A stretch of DNA of 64,000 bases from Bacillota bacterium (GCA_012837735.1 DUQP01000036.1:7152-71151); one strand, 5' to 3'; shown: positions 16,956 to 39,122, counted from the first letter of the stretch. Made by a program: numbers and translations. The notes: generated by a model not told the origin, from the sequence alone.

Positions 16956-18692
16956 CTACCGGGCGCTATGGACGGGGAATCGCACCCGGAACAACGTCCC
17001 TTTTCCCTCTTCGCTTTCCACCTCAACCTGGCCGTGATGTTGTTCCACCACACCTTTCACAATGCTCAATCCTAAACCACTGCCACTGACTCCCCTTTCG
17101 CCCTTGACACGATAAAACCGCTCAAATATGCGCGGGAGGTGTTGGGTTGGTATTCCCTGCCCTTCATCGCACACTTCCAACACCACCTCCAACGGTCGCC
17201 GCTCAATCCGCAACACTATCGTCCCCGGTGCCTGGCTATATTTGATTGCGTTACTGAGCAAATTGCTGATCACATGACCCAGCGCGATACTATCCCCCGA
17301 CATCATCGCCCGTTCATTCCCGGGGAAAATGGCTTTCAGTTCCAATCCTTTTTGAGCAGCTTGCGGACCATAACGGGCCAGGGCTTCTTTCGCCACCGTG
17401 ACCAAGTTGACACTTGTCAACCGTTGCCGGCTCACCCCTAAGTCGGCTTCGTTCAAAACTAGAATCCTTTCAATCATTTCCTCCAAATCCAGCGCCGCCT
17501 TGCCTATTTCCTCCAAATAGCTGTGACTTCGGTCAGCCTCATCTACTGCGGCGGCCAGTTGCACAAAACCGCTGATGGTCGCCAACGGTGTCTTTAGATC
17601 ATGTGTCACCCAACGCATGAACTCCCGGCGCGCTGCCTCCTGCTCCAACTCCCGGGACACATCCCAAATCGTTACCACCTTGCGTACCAGGGCCCCTGTG
17701 CTTTCCGGCTGCAATACCACCTGGTCAACTACAACCTCCACATCCCGAAATCCCTGTCCAGACCGCAGACGATGTCGAAAGCGCCTGCCCGGCAACACCG
17801 GGCGGTCATGTCTGTGATCATCAAACAGCCCCCAAAATGACATGCCTTGCAATTCTCGATGCGTGCGGCCAGTCATCTCCTGAAAAGCAGCATTCACTGC
17901 CAGCAACCTGTCCTTTTCATCCAGCAAAGCCAACCCCGCCCCACAACTGGCAAAGACCGCCTCCCACTGTTCGTTTTTTTGAATGCTGGCCTCCTGTAAT
18001 TCACCATCAAACAAAACCATAGAACGGGTAATCAATAATGGTGCCAAAAAGGCCAAAATTCCCATGATGCCCATACCCTCATACATCTTGACCAACAAAA
18101 AGGCCATTCCCGCCAATAACGCCTGATTAGGCCATTTCCGTCGCCACTGTGCCCATATCCGTTTCAGGCCATCAAAACCATTGGCTATAATTCCTTCTCC
18201 CAAGCGCAAAAAGGAAGGTCCGCAGCACACGACGATCGCCGCTAAGAGCACCCCCAGGGGATACAAAAGTCCAACCCAGGCAACTGCCAGTACTGCCGGG
18301 ATCCCCACTGTCCCAATGGCAAATAGCATCCGCTCCCACCGTCTTTGCCATGGCTGTACGGCCTGCAAAATGGCGGGCAATACTAACACGAACAGCCCGT
18401 GCGTGCCGAACAAAATGATGGCCATTAATCCCACCGCCGGCGTGACAGTAATAGACATCCCATACAGCAAGCGCACCGGCACAAATTCCATTAATGTGGC
18501 CAGCAAGGTTAAAACCATGATCGTGAACGACGGCACTCCTGCTTGCACAAGAGCAACCAACAAGGAGATCGTACCACCAAACCCAATCATCCTGTTGTAA
18601 ATCGTTTCCCATTTGATTCTTGCCCTCATCTGATAACCCCCAGGCCTAAACAGCTTTTTGGGCAATACTAAACTGGCAGGAATTTCGTTCAC
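16956..18692 (-). CDS. Orphan sensor histidine kinase (about 6 TM + PAS + HisKA + HATPase_c)
   Basis: 578 aa; H-box VTHDLKTPLATISGF, N/G boxes in the C-terminal ATPase domain; no adjacent response regulator. Confidence 0.85.
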   Translation of the reverse strand: MNEIPASLVLPKKLFRPGGYQMRARIKWETIYNRMIGFGGTISLLVALVQAGVPSFTIMVLTLLATLMEFVPVRLLYGMSITVTPAVGLMAIILFGTHGLFVLVLPAILQAVQPWQRRWERMLFAIGTVGIPAVLAVAWVGLLYPLGVLLAAIVVCCGPSFLRLGEGIIANGFDGLKRIWAQWRRKWPNQALLAGMAFLLVKMYEGMGIMGILAFLAPLLITRSMVLFDGELQEASIQKNEQWEAVFASCGAGLALLDEKDRLLAVNAAFQEMTGRTHRELQGMSFWGLFDDHRHDRPVLPGRRFRHRLRSGQGFRDVEVVVDQVVLQPESTGALVRKVVTIWDVSRELEQEAARREFMRWVTHDLKTPLATISGFVQLAAAVDEADRSHSYLEEIGKAALDLEEMIERILVLNEADLGVSRQRLTSVNLVTVAKEALARYGPQAAQKGLELKAIFPGNERAMMSGDSIALGHVISNLLSNAIKYSQAPGTIVLRIERRPLEVVLEVCDEGQGIPTQHLPRIFERFYRVKGERGVSGSGLGLSIVKGVVEQHHGQVEVESEEGKGTLFRVRFPVHSAR

Positions 18693-18750: not shown

Positions 18751-19566
18751 ATGGCATCATGTGCTGTCTTCGGGGGGAGCGACCCCCGTGCTGAAGTGTC
18801 ATCAGCTGTCTTTGCTTTAACTCCAGCTGAGTCAAAGCGTCTCATTGCCAAAGGTGTAGCAAATTTGCCGGAAGTGAAGGCCGCCCTACAAAAAGGCCGC
18901 GTCGTAATAGCAACCGGTTCCACCACCGGTTACGTAGCTGAAGAGATCCTTGGCCGGCAATTTGAACGGAAAAAATTTCTGTCCGGCCACATCTTTGATG
19001 GCCTGTTATGCGCCATGGGCGATCATCCCGCCCTGTATCCCTTTGTAATCATTGATGGTCAGGTAATCGATGTCCCACCAGAGGACATCCTGCCTGATTT
19101 TGAGGCCACAGACGTTTTTATCAAGAGCGCTAACGCTGTAGACATCAATGGACATGCCGGTGTCCTGATGGCAAATGAACTGGGTGGCACGATTGGGATG
19201 GCTTTAGGCATCCTCACTTCGCGCGGCGCTAATTTAATCGTTCCGGTCGGCATGGAAAAGATGATTCCTTCCGTAACCGAGGCCTCTCGGAGACTCGGTA
19301 CCAGAAGGGTGAAATATGGTTTGGAAAGCGCGGCGCTGGAAGGCAAAATTGGATTGATGCCACTCGTAACCGCTACCGTTATCACAGAGGTGACTGCCCT
19401 ACACCGTTTGTGTGATGTGGAAGTCTTCCACATTGCCTCCGGCGGCATCGGTGGCTCCGAAGGTTCTGTGGTCTTGCTGATAGAAGGTAAAGAAGAAAAC
19501 GTGCAATCCGCTCTCTCGCTGATCAAGGAAATTAAGGGCGAGCCTCCTTTTGGGCGCCCCTACTAA
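18751..19566 (+). CDS. Conserved hypothetical protein (function unknown), divergent from the histidine kinase
   Basis: 271 aa; RBS AAGGAGG 8 nt upstream; Gly-rich segments (GSTTGY, ASGGIGGSEGS); no family confidently recognised. Confidence 0.5.
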   Translation: MASCAVFGGSDPRAEVSSAVFALTPAESKRLIAKGVANLPEVKAALQKGRVVIATGSTTGYVAEEILGRQFERKKFLSGHIFDGLLCAMGDHPALYPFVIIDGQVIDVPPEDILPDFEATDVFIKSANAVDINGHAGVLMANELGGTIGMALGILTSRGANLIVPVGMEKMIPSVTEASRRLGTRRVKYGLESAALEGKIGLMPLVTATVITEVTALHRLCDVEVFHIASGGIGGSEGSVVLLIEGKEENVQSALSLIKEIKGEPPFGRPY

Positions 19567-19605: not shown

Positions 19606-21267
19606 TCAGTTCAGAATCTTCCCTTCTTGCAACAAGGCGATGAAGCGGGCTGCCAAAACCGGGTCAAACTGTTTGCCTGCGCACATCTCAAACTCCTGAA
19701 TGATCTCCGGTAACGTTTTCGCTTCTTGATAAGGACGGTCATTCCACATAGCATCAAAACTGTCACAGATAGCCAACACTCGCGCGCCCAGCGGTATTTC
19801 CTCCCCCTTCAACCCTTGCGGATAGCCTTTGCCATCATACCTTTCATGGTGGTAAAGGATTATTGGTACCGCCGTACCCAGTGCCTTCACCGGTCGAACG
19901 ATCTCGGCCCCCCATTCCGGGTGACGTTTAATCACATCCCATTCCTCATCATTCAGAGGACCAGGCTTGTTTAAAATCTCATAACTGATTTCGATTTTCC
20001 CAACATCATGCAAGAAACCACCATAGGTCAGATCCGAGATTTCCTTCTCGCTAAGCCCGATTTCCCGCCCCAGGACCGTGGCGTATTGCATCACCCGCTC
20101 CGAGTGGCCATATGTATAACGGTCTTTTGCGTTGACCAGGTAAATGAGGGTCTTGAGAGTACTGATCAAAGCTAAATCTGACTCTGCCAATTCTGCCTTT
20201 AGCTCATCCAAAACGGAAAAATACAACTCAATCTTGTTCCGACTTTCAAACTTGGCTTTATACAAAGCGATATCGGCGACTTTCAGTAATTCTTCCTTGC
20301 TGGAAGCATGGTCCGGCAGGGTGGCCACGCCCACCGAAACCGACATCACTCCCCCCGGCTGCACCTCCTCCCCAAAAAACTCGTGCTCCTCAACCGCGTT
20401 GCGGATCCGCTCCGCCACCCGTACCGCCTCTCCACTGCCGGCTTTCGGCAAGATGACGACGAATTCGTCACCGCCATAACGGGCCAAAAATGAGTATTTG
20501 GGACAGACGGTGCGCATCACCTCTCCGACTTGATATAAAGCTTGATCACCCTGTTGGTGTCCAAAAACATCGTTATAGTGTTTGAAGTAGTCTATGTCGA
20601 GAAAAATGAGGGACAGCTTATCGCCCGCTGCTTTGGCTTTTTCCACTTCTTCCACAAGGCCTTCTTGAAAACGGCGGTGGTTGTATAGTGAGGTGACTTC
20701 ATCCAGATTGGCCTGTTCCGCCAATTTGGCACGGATCCTCCTTTCCGTGTCCACCAGGTCTCCCACCGACCAGGCCACGATGAACAAGATTGCTATCAAC
20801 ACCAAATCATGCTCCAGGTATTGATTGTAAGCCGCACCTGGCATCGACACAACGTCGCTTATAATCAAACCAATTAAAGAAGCGAAAGCTGCTGCGAATC
20901 CCATCCCTTTCCCGAACGAAACTGCAAACAATACTACGGGGATGAAATAGAGGCTCTTTAGATCACTTCTCTGCGCACCAGAAATATAAACGATGAATGA
21001 AATAATGAAGACCAGTACAAATAACAAAGCCCCGCGTGCCAACATCGTGGCCCGGGCTGGCAATGCTAAACGAGGATGAAGCAAAAATAATAAATAATAA
21101 ATGAGCAGGATAATACCAAAACAGCCAACCACCAAATACCTTTCCTGAATGATTTTTTCGGGAAGGTATCCAGCAATAGCGATAAAAAACAGAAGTATCG
21201 AGATAATGTTTATAATCGTCACAGTGTTGCTTACTTCAGTTGCTCTTTCTCGTTCAATCCAACTCAC
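19606..21267 (-). CDS. Membrane-bound GGDEF (diguanylate cyclase) + HD-GYP (c-di-GMP phosphodiesterase) protein; last gene of the agr-like operon
   Basis: 553 aa; GTG start with RBS GGGTGGG; about 5 N-terminal TM helices (1-170); GGDEF domain with intact RYGGDEF and no RxxD I-site; HD-GYP with HSERV...HDVGK...HHERYDGKGYP. Confidence 0.85.
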   Translation of the reverse strand: MSWIERERATEVSNTVTIINIISILLFFIAIAGYLPEKIIQERYLVVGCFGIILLIYYLLFLLHPRLALPARATMLARGALLFVLVFIISFIVYISGAQRSDLKSLYFIPVVLFAVSFGKGMGFAAAFASLIGLIISDVVSMPGAAYNQYLEHDLVLIAILFIVAWSVGDLVDTERRIRAKLAEQANLDEVTSLYNHRRFQEGLVEEVEKAKAAGDKLSLIFLDIDYFKHYNDVFGHQQGDQALYQVGEVMRTVCPKYSFLARYGGDEFVVILPKAGSGEAVRVAERIRNAVEEHEFFGEEVQPGGVMSVSVGVATLPDHASSKEELLKVADIALYKAKFESRNKIELYFSVLDELKAELAESDLALISTLKTLIYLVNAKDRYTYGHSERVMQYATVLGREIGLSEKEISDLTYGGFLHDVGKIEISYEILNKPGPLNDEEWDVIKRHPEWGAEIVRPVKALGTAVPIILYHHERYDGKGYPQGLKGEEIPLGARVLAICDSFDAMWNDRPYQEAKTLPEIIQEFEMCAGKQFDPVLAARFIALLQEGKILN

Positions 21268-21295
21268 ATTAACCCACCCACAGGGTTTTCTAACG

Positions 21296-21329
21296 CTTAC
21301 CGGGGGCTAAGGAACAGGCCCCCGGTAAG
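21296..21329 (-). promoter_or_regulatory. Perfect 12-bp stem-loop in the agrD-to-GGDEF intergenic spacer (possible partial terminator or RNA-processing element)
   Basis: CTTACCGGGGGC-taaggaacag-GCCCCCGGTAAG; no U-tract follows on the minus strand. Confidence 0.5.
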
Positions 21330-21357
21330 TGTCGCTATTACTAAAAAATCTTATTGT

Positions 21358-21492
21358 TTACCATTTCTGCAGAGCCTTGGGTACATCCGGCTGATAGAAA
21401 TTCCAGAAACAAGCCGATGACGCAGTGACAGTAGCCAAGAGTGTCAACACGGAAACGGCCATTAACAAAACACTCTTCCACATCTTACGCAT
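21358..21492 (-). CDS. agrD: AgrD-like autoinducing peptide precursor (44 aa; predicted thiolactone core CFWNF)
   Basis: Not in the ORF track (<60 aa). ATG at 21492 with RBS AAGGGGGTG; protein MRKMWKSVLLMAVSVLTLLATVTASSA-CFWNF-YQPDVPKALQKW. It has an amphipathic leader, a Cys-containing pentapeptide, and a conserved AgrD C-terminal tail (P-x-x-P-K-x-L); it lies 15 nt downstream of agrB. Confidence 0.8.
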   Translation of the reverse strand: MRKMWKSVLLMAVSVLTLLATVTASSACFWNFYQPDVPKALQKW

Positions 21493-21507
21493 GGATTACA
21501 CCCCCTT

Positions 21508-22128
21508 TCATCTAATACCAATTTGCAACAGGAACCTGTCAATAAGTGAAATCATCTTCACTCCTAGCGGAGTAATTGCGAAAACTTGAAATGCAGCTCC
21601 AAACAAGAGTGCAATCGTAATAGAGTCGTTTTTTGCCATCAGGCTAACACTCGCAATCAGCAATACCACTACAAAAGCAATTAGTCTCAGACGGGAACGA
21701 TGCAGACTATTTTTTATCGGTTTATTAGGTGCTTCCGCCGGTGCCCAAAGGTGCACGGCGACCAGCAAAACCATAGTAACAATAAACACCAGCAAAGTGG
21801 CTTGAAAAGAATTTAATACACCGCCCAGGAAATGGCTGAAAAGAGCCAAAGGAGCAAAAATAATTGACGCCACCGCACAGCGAATACCAGCCGAACAGTG
21901 CCCTCCCCCAGCGAATGTACGCACCAACGCACCAGACAGCATACATAGAAAAGTGAGCAATCCTACTCCAAAAAATAAACCGACAGCCACTGCTAACACA
22001 AAACCCAGTAATCCAATGAACACTAATTCTAACGAATAAGTGACGATTTCGTACTGGTCATGATTTAGGTCGCACTGCCCTTTAATAGCATCGGCAGCTC
22101 TCATTGCTAATTGAGAGGTGTCAAACAC
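21508..22128 (-). CDS. agrB: AgrB family membrane peptidase (AgrD-processing enzyme)
   Basis: 206 aa polytopic; GTG start overlapping the stop of the upstream gene; motif R-TFAGGGH-CSAGIR-C-AVAS aligns with the AgrB R..GG.H(+7)....C(+14)...S(+18) catalytic His/Cys signature. Confidence 0.85.
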   Translation of the reverse strand: MFDTSQLAMRAADAIKGQCDLNHDQYEIVTYSLELVFIGLLGFVLAVAVGLFFGVGLLTFLCMLSGALVRTFAGGGHCSAGIRCAVASIIFAPLALFSHFLGGVLNSFQATLLVFIVTMVLLVAVHLWAPAEAPNKPIKNSLHRSRLRLIAFVVVLLIASVSLMAKNDSITIALLFGAAFQVFAITPLGVKMISLIDRFLLQIGIR

Positions 22129-22129
22129 A

Positions 22130-22597
22130 TTATCCTCTCCCCTTGATGCTACGTTTTCCGGTTCCGCACATTATCTTTATCAACCAGGCAATCAAAAACA
22201 TTGCGCCTGGGCACATCAAACCAAACAACGTTCTCAAGCCCGCATGATTCATAATGCCATCGTAAGACATGCCAAATACCCCGATGGCTAACGCAAACAT
22301 TATCGTCTCAAGCACCGCCAGAGTACCAGATGTGACTAGAGCGGCTCCAAACGCTTTGCTAACTTTAGCCTTTAACCGCCAACATATCAACAAAACCATC
22401 CAACCCACTAGAATGATGGAATGAACGCCAAACGATAACGGTAATTGTCTGACTATGAAACCCATGACAGCGATTAGCAATCCGATTGTCAACAGATCAT
22501 CTAGTCTAAATCTGAATCTGAAGATGGTTAAGCCAAAATACGCCATTGCTATGCCTTCTAGGATGCCTTGAAAAAAAAAGAGTAAGGTTTGATACAC
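22130..22597 (-). CDS. Small polytopic membrane protein (4 TM), first gene of the agr-like operon; function unknown
   Basis: 155 aa, GTG start with RBS GGAGGT; translationally coupled to agrB (TAATGTG junction); AT-rich. Confidence 0.5.
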   Translation of the reverse strand: MYQTLLFFFQGILEGIAMAYFGLTIFRFRFRLDDLLTIGLLIAVMGFIVRQLPLSFGVHSIILVGWMVLLICWRLKAKVSKAFGAALVTSGTLAVLETIMFALAIGVFGMSYDGIMNHAGLRTLFGLMCPGAMFLIAWLIKIMCGTGKRSIKGRG

Positions 22598-22788
22598 AAT
22601 TTTACCTCCGATTGTAGTTTACTTTATCCCTATATAAACAGAATTCTCCAACATTTGTAATGCATTACTGCTGAAAATTGTCATATCTAACAAAAGTCCA
22701 GTAAAATAAGAACAATTTTTGGGAAATTATTCTAGCTTATGTCAAAATATCCTTCTTTTCCTAGAGTATCTTTTTGAATTTATAATAA

Positions 22789-38877: not shown

Positions 38878-39122
38878 TACAAAAAAAGCCCACGAAGGTA
38901 CTCCGTCGGCTAAGCCAAGGGGTACTCAACTCCCGTTTGAGATAGCACTCCACCGCCTTCCCGGGAAAGGAAAGCAATGACAGTGTTGTACCTGTTCAGC
39001 ACAACCCCAGCCCAGGGGTACCGGCCACCGCCCGGGCTTCGGCGGAGGCCCCTTTCCTTACCATTCATCAATGCCCTTTTCCTGGCAAGTACTGATGGCA
39101 TCCGCACCTCTACCTCACTAAC
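38878..39122 (-). ncRNA. Lysine riboswitch (L-box) with intrinsic terminator, in the 5' leader of dapB
   Basis: The minus-strand RNA contains GTAGAGGTGCGGAT, GGAAAGGGGCCTCCGCCGAAG, CTGTCA and GGTGGAGTGCTATCTC, matching conserved L-box segments of B. subtilis lysC (AGAGGTGCGAAC / GAAAGGGGAGCGTCGCCGAAG / CTGTCA / GGAGGGCTATCT). The match is by sequence recollection, not a model search. The leader ends in hairpin GCCGACGGAG-uac-CUUCGUGGGC plus U7 about 45 nt before the dapB start. Confidence 0.7.

Follow-up and report, generated by a model that had tools for sequence, protein, structure and literature searches.

An open reading frame (ORF) of 44 codons and a stop, on the minus strand at positions 21358–21492 of a 64-kb stretch of Bacillota DNA (GCA_012837735.1, DUQP01000036.1:7152-71151; the whole stretch is referred to as the window), almost certainly encodes an AgrD-type precursor of a cyclic signalling peptide. 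The best explanation of the locus overall, to which we assign a probability of about 0.72, is an agr-type module that makes the cyclic pentapeptide cyclo(CFWNF), which would be sensed by a membrane-bound enzyme of cyclic di-GMP (c-di-GMP) turnover encoded beside it. The genes run on the minus strand in the order 155-amino-acid membrane protein, agrB, agrD, a GC-rich hairpin, and finally a gene for a protein with about six transmembrane (TM) helices (6TM), a GGDEF domain and an HD-GYP domain; the translated agrD product is MRKMWKSVLLMAVSVLTLLATVTASSACFWNFYQPDVPKALQKW.

The AgrD identity is argued from a family match, from the adjoining AgrB with its His77 and Cys84, from a codon-position signature and from the name given to the protein at NCBI. 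Against the NCBIfam model TIGR04223 (AgrD family cyclic lactone autoinducer peptide), whose cutoff is 19 bits, the product scores 42 bits over residues 12–43 (E=7.1e-11), and the model is passed by 15 of the 15 aligned AgrD homologues described below. The Pfam AgrD model PF05931 was built from staphylococcal sequences, and the product is not filed under it because it stays below the threshold of such a model (14.8 bits against a gathering threshold of 22.7). Thus, of the two family models with which the initial annotation had proposed to check its AgrD call, TIGR04223 bears the call out well over its cutoff and the Pfam model does not. The counterpart in a locus whose AgrB is 50% identical (L007) is encoded by the same ORF directly after AgrB and reads MRKAWRQMLLLAVSVLTVLATVNVASA-CWWNF-YQPELPEALKK; the two genes differ by 9, 7 and 23 nucleotides at codon positions 1, 2 and 3, respectively, with 12 synonymous codon changes.

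The ORF lies at exactly the coordinates at which the initial annotation had placed it, and the strand, which had been left unstated, is the minus strand. The strong ribosome-binding site (RBS) and the 15-nt distance from agrB that had been described with it can both be read off the sequence: agrB ends in a TGA at 21510–21508, the spacer between this stop and the agrD ATG is AAGGGGGTGTAATCC (21507–21493, 15 nt), and the RBS within it, AAGGGGGTG, occupies 21499–21507 on the minus strand, its GGGGGTG core ending 6 nt ahead of the ATG. The AAAGGGGGTG of this site recurs in L007. The description of the gene as unannotated did not hold, given that GenBank already contains an identical 44-residue protein (MGI6548044.1) and a 41-residue call that starts at Met4 (HHT02029.1), both from Bacillota metagenome-assembled genomes (MAGs) and both named "cyclic lactone autoinducer peptide"; the distance from the RBS speaks for the 44-residue start over the one at Met4. 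On all six contigs found with this AgrB, agrD is called as a gene, the contig end cutting it on one of them. Word-indexed homologue searches gave 1 match for AgrD, 2 for AgrB and 4 for the family of the 155-residue protein, and are informative for names only.

The adjoining agrB gene (21508–22128, minus strand), which starts 1 nt past the stop codon of the 155-residue protein's gene, encodes a 206-residue AgrD-processing membrane peptidase/cyclase (PF04647, E=4.6e-30). Its His77 and Cys84 are invariant in an alignment with 32 relatives and are presumably the catalytic pair H77/C84 of Staphylococcus aureus AgrB. The protein sits on a long, isolated branch, such that an exhaustive HMMER search of 1.84 billion representatives returned one relative at 50% identity and others at no more than 37%, and a single-sequence AgrB scan of genome contigs gave no match. 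As an aside, one protein of 1340 residues among the representatives (P0005) contains 14 separate stretches that match AgrB (E=1.5e-30), and could be an unusual AgrB-like protein with repeats or the product of a faulty assembly.

The agrD product itself can be divided into three parts. Residues 1–27 (21412–21492, minus strand) form a leader of Sec-type appearance that begins with MRKMWK, contains a single hydrophobic segment at residues 7–25 and ends in TASSA, a small-x-small end; residues 28–32 (21397–21411) are the core CFWNF, the predicted macrocycle; and residues 33–44 (21361–21396) are the follower, YQPDVPKALQKW, probably an AgrB recognition tail that is removed in processing. Alignment to relatives, which had been suggested as a check on the call, is free of gaps across 15 sequences, namely the window peptide and 14 peptides from AgrB-seeded loci, and reveals a common pattern of Cys or Ser, four variable residues and a YQPE-xP follower. 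Position 28 is Cys in 12 sequences and Ser in three (L017, L018 and L025), and the next four residues are hypervariable. In the follower, Y33, P35 and P38 never vary, and conservation of Q34 is 90% or more. Of the 12 Cys-type peptides, 11 have A-[SG]-A ahead of the Cys, the window peptide itself having S-S-A. The 82 distinct peptides of a larger, pattern-selected metagenomic set contain 72 distinct rings; a hypervariable core flanked by conserved parts is the hallmark of AgrD.

In the mechanism that we propose, the leader would insert AgrD into the membrane, where AgrB, through His77 and Cys84, would cleave the Phe32/Tyr33 bond and Cys28 would close CFWNF into a thiolactone of five residues. 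Once exported, the product would be cut by signal peptidase I behind S-S-A27, which frees a tail-less ring, in which the free alpha-amine beside the thioester would allow an S-to-N acyl shift to the homodetic cyclo(CFWNF). The 6TM domain of the adjoining GGDEF-HD-GYP enzyme would then sense the peptide in place of AgrC and AgrA, possibly together with the 155-residue protein, and cell density would be converted directly to changed c-di-GMP turnover. The processing steps are drawn from agr biochemistry and clostridial precedents, and the sensing step from comparative genomics.

The candidate receiver is a 553-residue protein encoded immediately after agrD at 19606–21267 on the minus strand. Its 6TM input domain (residues 1–185, 20713–21267) was recognised through sub-threshold Pfam matches to DUF4118 and 6TM_PilS and through homology to the TM domains of HisKA kinases; it is followed by a GGDEF (diguanylate cyclase) domain at residues 186–345 (20233–20712, PF00990, E=8e-43) and an HD-GYP (c-di-GMP phosphodiesterase) domain at residues 373–537 (19657–20151, PF13487, E=2.4e-35). 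With both domain models over threshold and the motifs intact (GGDEF at residue 265, HDVGK at 420 and GYP at 481; the RxxD I-site is absent), the protein is a predicted c-di-GMP turnover enzyme. Among agr-linked homologues the HD and GYP motifs are intact in 20–21 of 21, and GGDEF is degenerate in 3 of 25, so that the phosphodiesterase appears to be the consistently conserved output. In the three loci concerned (L012, L076 and L094), GG[DE]EF is degenerate while HD-GYP is intact, which may mean that the cyclase domain has a regulatory role in part of the family. The 90% cluster that contains the 553-residue protein also lists Salmonella fragments of 28–56 residues labelled 'fimbrial protein, partial', an apparent clustering artefact.

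What makes this enzyme a plausible receptor is in part what the window does not contain. Searches of the 64 kb by tblastn and hidden Markov models (HMMs), with the kinases of four related loci (L018, L019, L025 and L029) as queries, found no AgrC-type kinase (HPK10; SPOB_a plus HATPase_c_5); the sole window match to these kinases was the 155-residue protein, which aligns with their N-terminal membrane part. No AgrA-type LytTR regulator was found in the window either, with no tblastn match at E<=0.01 and no HMM match. Within the window, then, the locus is not a canonical four-gene agrBDCA operon.

The same arrangement recurs elsewhere. When species-representative genomes were scanned with an AgrB alignment of six sequences, 24 loci emerged, belonging to Clostridia, Peptococcaceae, Dethiobacter, Desulforudis and Moorellales MAGs, Tepidanaerobacter and Paradesulfitobacterium, and an AgrD-like ORF stands right after AgrB in 14 of the 24. 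The gene order of the window is kept in L007 and, at about 30% AgrB identity, in L010, L011, L013 and L027 (by Pfam), to which local HMMs add L012 and L030. In L014, L015 and L024, and by local HMMs in L026, agrD is followed by a TM-(PAS)-HisKA kinase, and four loci (L018, L019, L025 and L029) have a classical AgrC-type kinase with a LytTR regulator. Two of the loci occur in MAGs with labels outside Bacillota, L013 in one labelled Desulfovibrio sp. (JAGVAS010000109.1) and L011 in one labelled Candidatus Sumerlaeota; at the DNA level, L013 and the Dethiobacter locus L012 share about 90% identity, and the non-Bacillota placement of L011 and L013 could have come about through binning contamination or horizontal transfer.

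A second survey, blind to neighbouring genes, scanned metagenomes with a degenerate DNA pattern drawn up by hand to match A-x-A-C-x4-Y-Q-P-[DE]-x-P and yielded 120 matches, from which 90 AgrD-like ORFs (the 82 distinct peptides mentioned above) were obtained. AgrB is present in the retrieved DNA for 75 of these 90 loci, and most of the others are on truncated contigs. Where at least 1.5 kb was available 3′ of agrD (50 loci), the downstream partner was a 6TM protein with a HisKA kinase in 21, a GGDEF/HD-GYP protein in 15 (14 of them with a detected 6TM domain) and an AgrC-type kinase in about 5, while 9 had no modelled domain downstream. In total, a 6TM domain follows agrD in 53 of the 90 loci; truncated loci in which the domain is seen to begin number 18.

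The 6TM domain of the GGDEF proteins is homologous to the TM domain of the HisKA kinases found at the same place (hhalign probability 97.4%, E=1.2e-11), so the recurrent design is one in which a single input module is carried by either a HisKA kinase or a GGDEF-HD-GYP enzyme. The module is also specific in its position: 70 of 74 matches to a 6TM HMM lie no farther than 900 nt downstream from agrD, the remaining four likewise belong to agr loci, and the HMM gave no match in 246 kb of non-agr control loci or in the rest of the window.

A further argument comes from close-relative loci whose AgrDs are alike in leader and follower but differ in the ring. Outside three patches, L081 (CGWVF) and L108 (CAWIA) are 95–100% identical, and the divergent patches are the middle of agrB, the codons of the ring and the beginning of the 6TM domain (RGYSYTN/RSSYYPS, HLYN/YFFN). 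Between L012 (CGWLL) and L013 (CTWLA), the same agrB hot spot is seen, and the 6TM domain is 67% identical where the cytoplasmic domains are 79–92% identical, the largest difference falling in the loop before the last helix. Such a pairing of loop and ring divergence is like that of the staphylococcal agr specificity groups, and the localisation of the divergence to loops supports the view that the 6TM domain, and perhaps the 155-residue protein, is the specificity-bearing receptor.

We therefore favour the adjacent c-di-GMP enzyme as the putative receptor, with a little better than even odds, because the window holds no AgrC or LytTR protein, because the 6TM domain is recurrent and position-specific after agrD, and because its predicted loops diverge with the ring. 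That it senses the peptide directly, wiring agr to c-di-GMP without a phosphorelay, and that the window represents a widespread, undescribed agr class in uncultured Bacillota, is a proposition that we would put at even odds.

The rival that survives best holds that the agrBD pair is an orphan here, its peptide being sensed by a kinase elsewhere, whether the one encoded at 16956–18692 or an unlinked AgrC- or VirS-type protein, and the GGDEF-HD-GYP gene being unrelated or only co-regulated. On balance we consider this unlikely, but a number of observations argue in its favour or otherwise weigh against sensing by the neighbouring enzyme. An agrBD pair without linked agrCA is well known, and VirS/VirR has been proposed as the receptor in Clostridium perfringens (PMC7300355); inspection was limited to 64 kb, and an AgrC/AgrA pair or a VirS-like receptor may be encoded elsewhere, as in that proposal. 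A strong hairpin parts agrD from the enzyme gene, such that co-transcription is not assured, and the 9 assessable metagenomic loci with no modelled partner downstream fit an orphan system. The 6TM domain resembles generic DUF4118/PilS-type membrane modules. The co-diversification signal comes from few locus pairs and is mixed, and membrane loops evolve fast anyway; between L081 and L054, divergence is greater in the 155-residue protein and AgrB than it is in the 6TM domain, with the hot spot in the C-terminal third of the 155-residue protein. Finally, the organism is an uncultured Bacillota MAG, and the locus is known from sequence alone. Against the orphan explanation stand the occurrence of the 6TM domain right after agrD in 70 loci and nowhere else in the 1.1 Mb examined, its coupling to two alternative outputs at AgrB identities down to about 30%, and the diversification of its loops along with the ring. 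As for the kinase at 16956–18692, it is an unlikely receptor, having no agr-linked 6TM domain, and an oppositely oriented gene lies between it and the locus.

With sensing by the adjacent enzyme as the preferred reading, the form of the signal remains to be considered. That the mature ring is the five-residue CFWNF is a prediction in which we have good confidence. Tyr33 is better regarded as a recognition residue of the follower than as a ring member because it is invariant beside four hypervariable residues, and the five-residue ring is backed by three literature anchors that put the cut directly before a conserved aromatic/His-Gln-Pro motif. In Clostridium (Hungateiclostridium) thermocellum, the ring S25–F29, confirmed by liquid chromatography–tandem mass spectrometry (LC-MS/MS), is cut before Y30, and P35 is conserved (PMC5322536); the spacing of the window peptide, C28–F32 | Y33 ... 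P38, is the same. In C. perfringens the ring is CLWFT, and the next residue is H according to the 6-R peptide CLWFTH (PMC7300355). The third anchor is the table of autoinducing peptides (AIPs) in PMC12312760. The CFWNF ring put forward in the initial annotation thus agrees with the cut sites in both species.

That the mature product has no tail is probable, if somewhat less assured than the size of the ring. The small-x-small motif that abuts the Cys suggests cleavage by signal peptidase I, and the native clostridial AIPs detected so far are all without N-terminal extension and homodetic after an S-to-N acyl shift (PMC8251862). By analogy, the tail-less ring of the window probably rearranges from a thiolactone to an all-amide cyclopeptide, the thiolactone being transient. 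The signal had initially been envisaged as a thiolactone, possibly with an N-terminal tail; its five-residue ring stands, and the small-x-small motif at the Cys and the clostridial precedents argue against the lasting thiolactone and the tail.

A different mature signal, either a six-membered CFWNFY ring cut after Tyr33 or a CFWNF ring extended by A, SA or SSA, seems improbable. Ring size does vary in Clostridia, where six-membered tail-less rings are known from Ruminiclostridium cellulolyticum (CWFWSY, ending in Tyr) and Clostridium acetobutylicum (PMC8251862), and staphylococcal AIPs carry tails of 2–4 residues (PMC12312760). The metagenomic set is uninformative on ring size and on the leader end, since the pattern by which it was selected fixes A-x-A-C-x4-YQP[DE]xP. 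What tells against the six-membered ring is the invariance of Tyr33 and the exclusion of the equivalent Tyr from the mass-spectrometrically confirmed C. thermocellum ring (PMC5322536), and what tells against a tail is the motif abutting the Cys, together with the unextended native clostridial AIPs (PMC8251862). For the predicted cyclo(CFWNF), the computed neutral monoisotopic mass is 697.268 and the [M+H]+ is 698.2755.

The third alternative, that the product is a small lipoprotein or a small peptide secreted by way of Sec and has nothing to do with AgrB, with ASSA|C as a signal-peptidase or lipobox site (an objection that the initial annotation had raised against its own call), can be set aside as extremely improbable: the leader does have the appearance of a canonical Sec signal peptide, and a permissive lipobox pattern can loosely accommodate A-S-S-A-C, but the Ser found at the Cys position in L017, L018 and L025 is incompatible with lipidation and is known for lactone AIPs, linkage to AgrB is strict and extends to 75 of the 90 metagenomic homologues, TIGR04223 is passed, and the conserved YQPE-xP follower has no role in a lipoprotein.

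In its layout, the predicted AgrD of the window is closest to those of C. perfringens and C. thermocellum. The resemblance to C. perfringens had been pointed out initially and is confirmed in the common leader end, the Cys-first aromatic pentapeptide and the Q-P-E-x-P-K-x-L follower. Both organisms have agrB-agrD without linked agrC and agrA, a Sec-like leader with small residues directly before the Cys, an aromatic-rich five-residue ring with no N-terminal tail (PMC7300355, PMC12312760), which for the window is a prediction, and a follower of the form [H/Y]-Q-P-E-x-P-K-x-L. They differ in the ring, which is CLWFT in C. perfringens, in the proposed receptor, which there is the unlinked VirS/VirR, and in the flanking genes of the window, where a 6TM-GGDEF-HD-GYP gene lies 3′ of agrD and the 155-residue protein's gene 5′ of agrB; moreover, beyond its own small clade the window AgrB has no relative above 37% identity. 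The C. thermocellum precursor Clo1313_2818 shares with the window a leader cut after Ala, a five-residue ring, a Tyr and a Pro five residues later, and its tail-less cyclic pentapeptide has been confirmed by LC-MS/MS (PMC5322536), whereas that of the window is predicted from sequence. Clo1313_2818 differs in being a Ser lactone whose gene is not beside agrB, and it, too, has no known receptor; the Ser-type homologues L017, L018 and L025 are the most like it.

The comparison with S. aureus agrBDCA is more distant. Common to both are the catalytic His and Cys of AgrB, an AgrD with leader, Cys-first five-residue ring and Pro-containing follower, and a hypervariable ring with co-diversifying flanking genes. 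In contrast to S. aureus, the window has no AgrC (HPK10) or AgrA (LytTR) in 64 kb, its AgrD does not reach PF05931, its leader is Sec-like and not an amphipathic helix, and no N-terminal tail is expected. R. cellulolyticum Rc-AIP1 and other clostridial cyclic AIPs begin as tail-less Cys-first thiolactones and become homodetic cyclopeptides (PMC8251862); the same is expected for CFWNF, although Rc-AIP1 has a six-residue ring (CWFWSY).

In its output, the proposed system follows the same logic, from a quorum signal to c-di-GMP turnover, as RpfR (the Burkholderia BDSF receptor, PAS-GGDEF-EAL) and RpfC/RpfG (HD-GYP, Xanthomonas) (PMC13220807). The Rpf systems use fatty-acid signals in Proteobacteria, and RpfR has a cytoplasmic PAS domain, whereas the proposal for the window involves a ribosomal cyclic peptide, Bacillota and a 6TM domain; the input modules are not homologous. 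An indirect link between agr and c-di-GMP exists in Clostridioides difficile, whose AgrA controls genes for phosphodiesterases (PMC3754575). The literature searched contained no account of a GGDEF/HD-GYP receptor linked to agrBD, an absence that is no proof of novelty, and the genes around agrD point to an agr architecture that recurs, has apparently not been described before and combines an input module other than AgrC with, in the window, a predicted c-di-GMP output.

The significance of the locus is unevenly distributed between its halves. The AgrB/AgrD half is unremarkable, belonging as it does to a very large family (29,921 AgrDs have been mined from RefSeq; PMC12180512), and its AgrD had already been named by the NCBI pipeline. 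Even so, the AgrD call offers a defined candidate signal, cyclo(CFWNF), for an uncultured Bacillota lineage with a long-branch AgrB. Many clostridial agrBD loci are without a known receptor, and the 6TM module, if the proposal is true, is a candidate receiver in such 'orphan' agrBD systems. Should the module prove to be the receptor, it would constitute a new AIP receptor class and provide Gram-positives with a direct route from peptide to c-di-GMP, like RpfR in its logic, by which cell density could couple directly to c-di-GMP-controlled biofilm formation and motility.

The gene upstream of agrB (22130–22597, minus strand) encodes a 155-residue, five-helix membrane protein of what we call the 'QGIPE' family, recognised by its homology to the N-termini of AgrC-type kinases. 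It has no Pfam or NCBIfam match, and homologues are present in 62 of the 90 metagenomic agrD loci. Its entire length can be aligned with the N-termini of the L018 and L019 HPK10 kinases, and across the group L018, L019, L025 and L029 the N-terminal membrane part of the AgrC-type kinases is homologous to it, either fused or split. Glu14 and His59 are invariant in the family and Arg50 is near-invariant; the window copy has Leu at the family's near-invariant Pro13. An AlphaFold 2 model of the window protein (predicted local distance difference test 83) had no informative match in the PDB. The sensor domain of S. aureus AgrC was not recognised by a family profile, in a comparison with a sequence that may be inexact, so that only a match would have been informative; homology is for this reason established only to the AgrC-type kinases of the retrieved loci. 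A relationship between the 155-residue protein and the 6TM domain was considered and rejected (hhalign probability 0.6%). The protein is possibly a co-receptor or accessory protein. Besides the window, the family was noted in L009, L012, L013, L015, L024, L044, L056, L087 and L092, and in agr loci it often occurs in two tandem copies; its members are 'hypothetical' in every source, and in L018 and L019 they are fused N-terminally to AgrC-type kinases.

Signals for transcription were also considered. A candidate sigma-70-type promoter, TTTATA-16-TACAAT, lies at 22611–22638 (minus strand) in the 191-nt gap between murB and the 155-residue protein's gene; it is weak and comes from a consensus scan only. 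Comparison of the promoter region with L007 revealed no obvious conserved element, and the candidate promoter is not kept there; nor does the window contain an AgrA that could bind repeats of the kind through which a canonical agrBDCA operon is autoinduced. Between agrD and the GGDEF-HD-GYP gene, folding predicts the GC-rich hairpin at 21292–21333 (minus strand): the 90-nt spacer downstream of agrD folds at -33.9 kcal/mol (z=-3.15), and none of 200 shuffled sequences folds as well. The window hairpin is without a T-run, and L007 has a canonical hairpin followed by T8 at the same place. The element is probably a partial terminator or a transcript-stabilising structure, which suggests attenuated read-through, by which the proportion of precursor and receptor transcripts would be set.

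Beyond the locus, a 271-residue ORF (18751–19566, plus strand) lies between the GGDEF-HD-GYP gene and the kinase weighed above; it has no Pfam or NCBIfam match and is present in all of this organism's contigs that reach there. The kinase (16956–18692, minus strand), two genes downstream of the agr locus, is a 578-residue protein with multiple TM helices and PAS, HisKA and HATPase domains; its membrane domain differs from the 6TM type linked to agr, and no response regulator adjoins it in the gene list for ±10 kb. An Rfam search near the agr locus found no c-di-GMP riboswitch and no other RNA, and the sole match at gathering threshold in the window is a lysine riboswitch (RF00168, 119 bits) at 38935–39120 on the minus strand, 17 kb from the locus.

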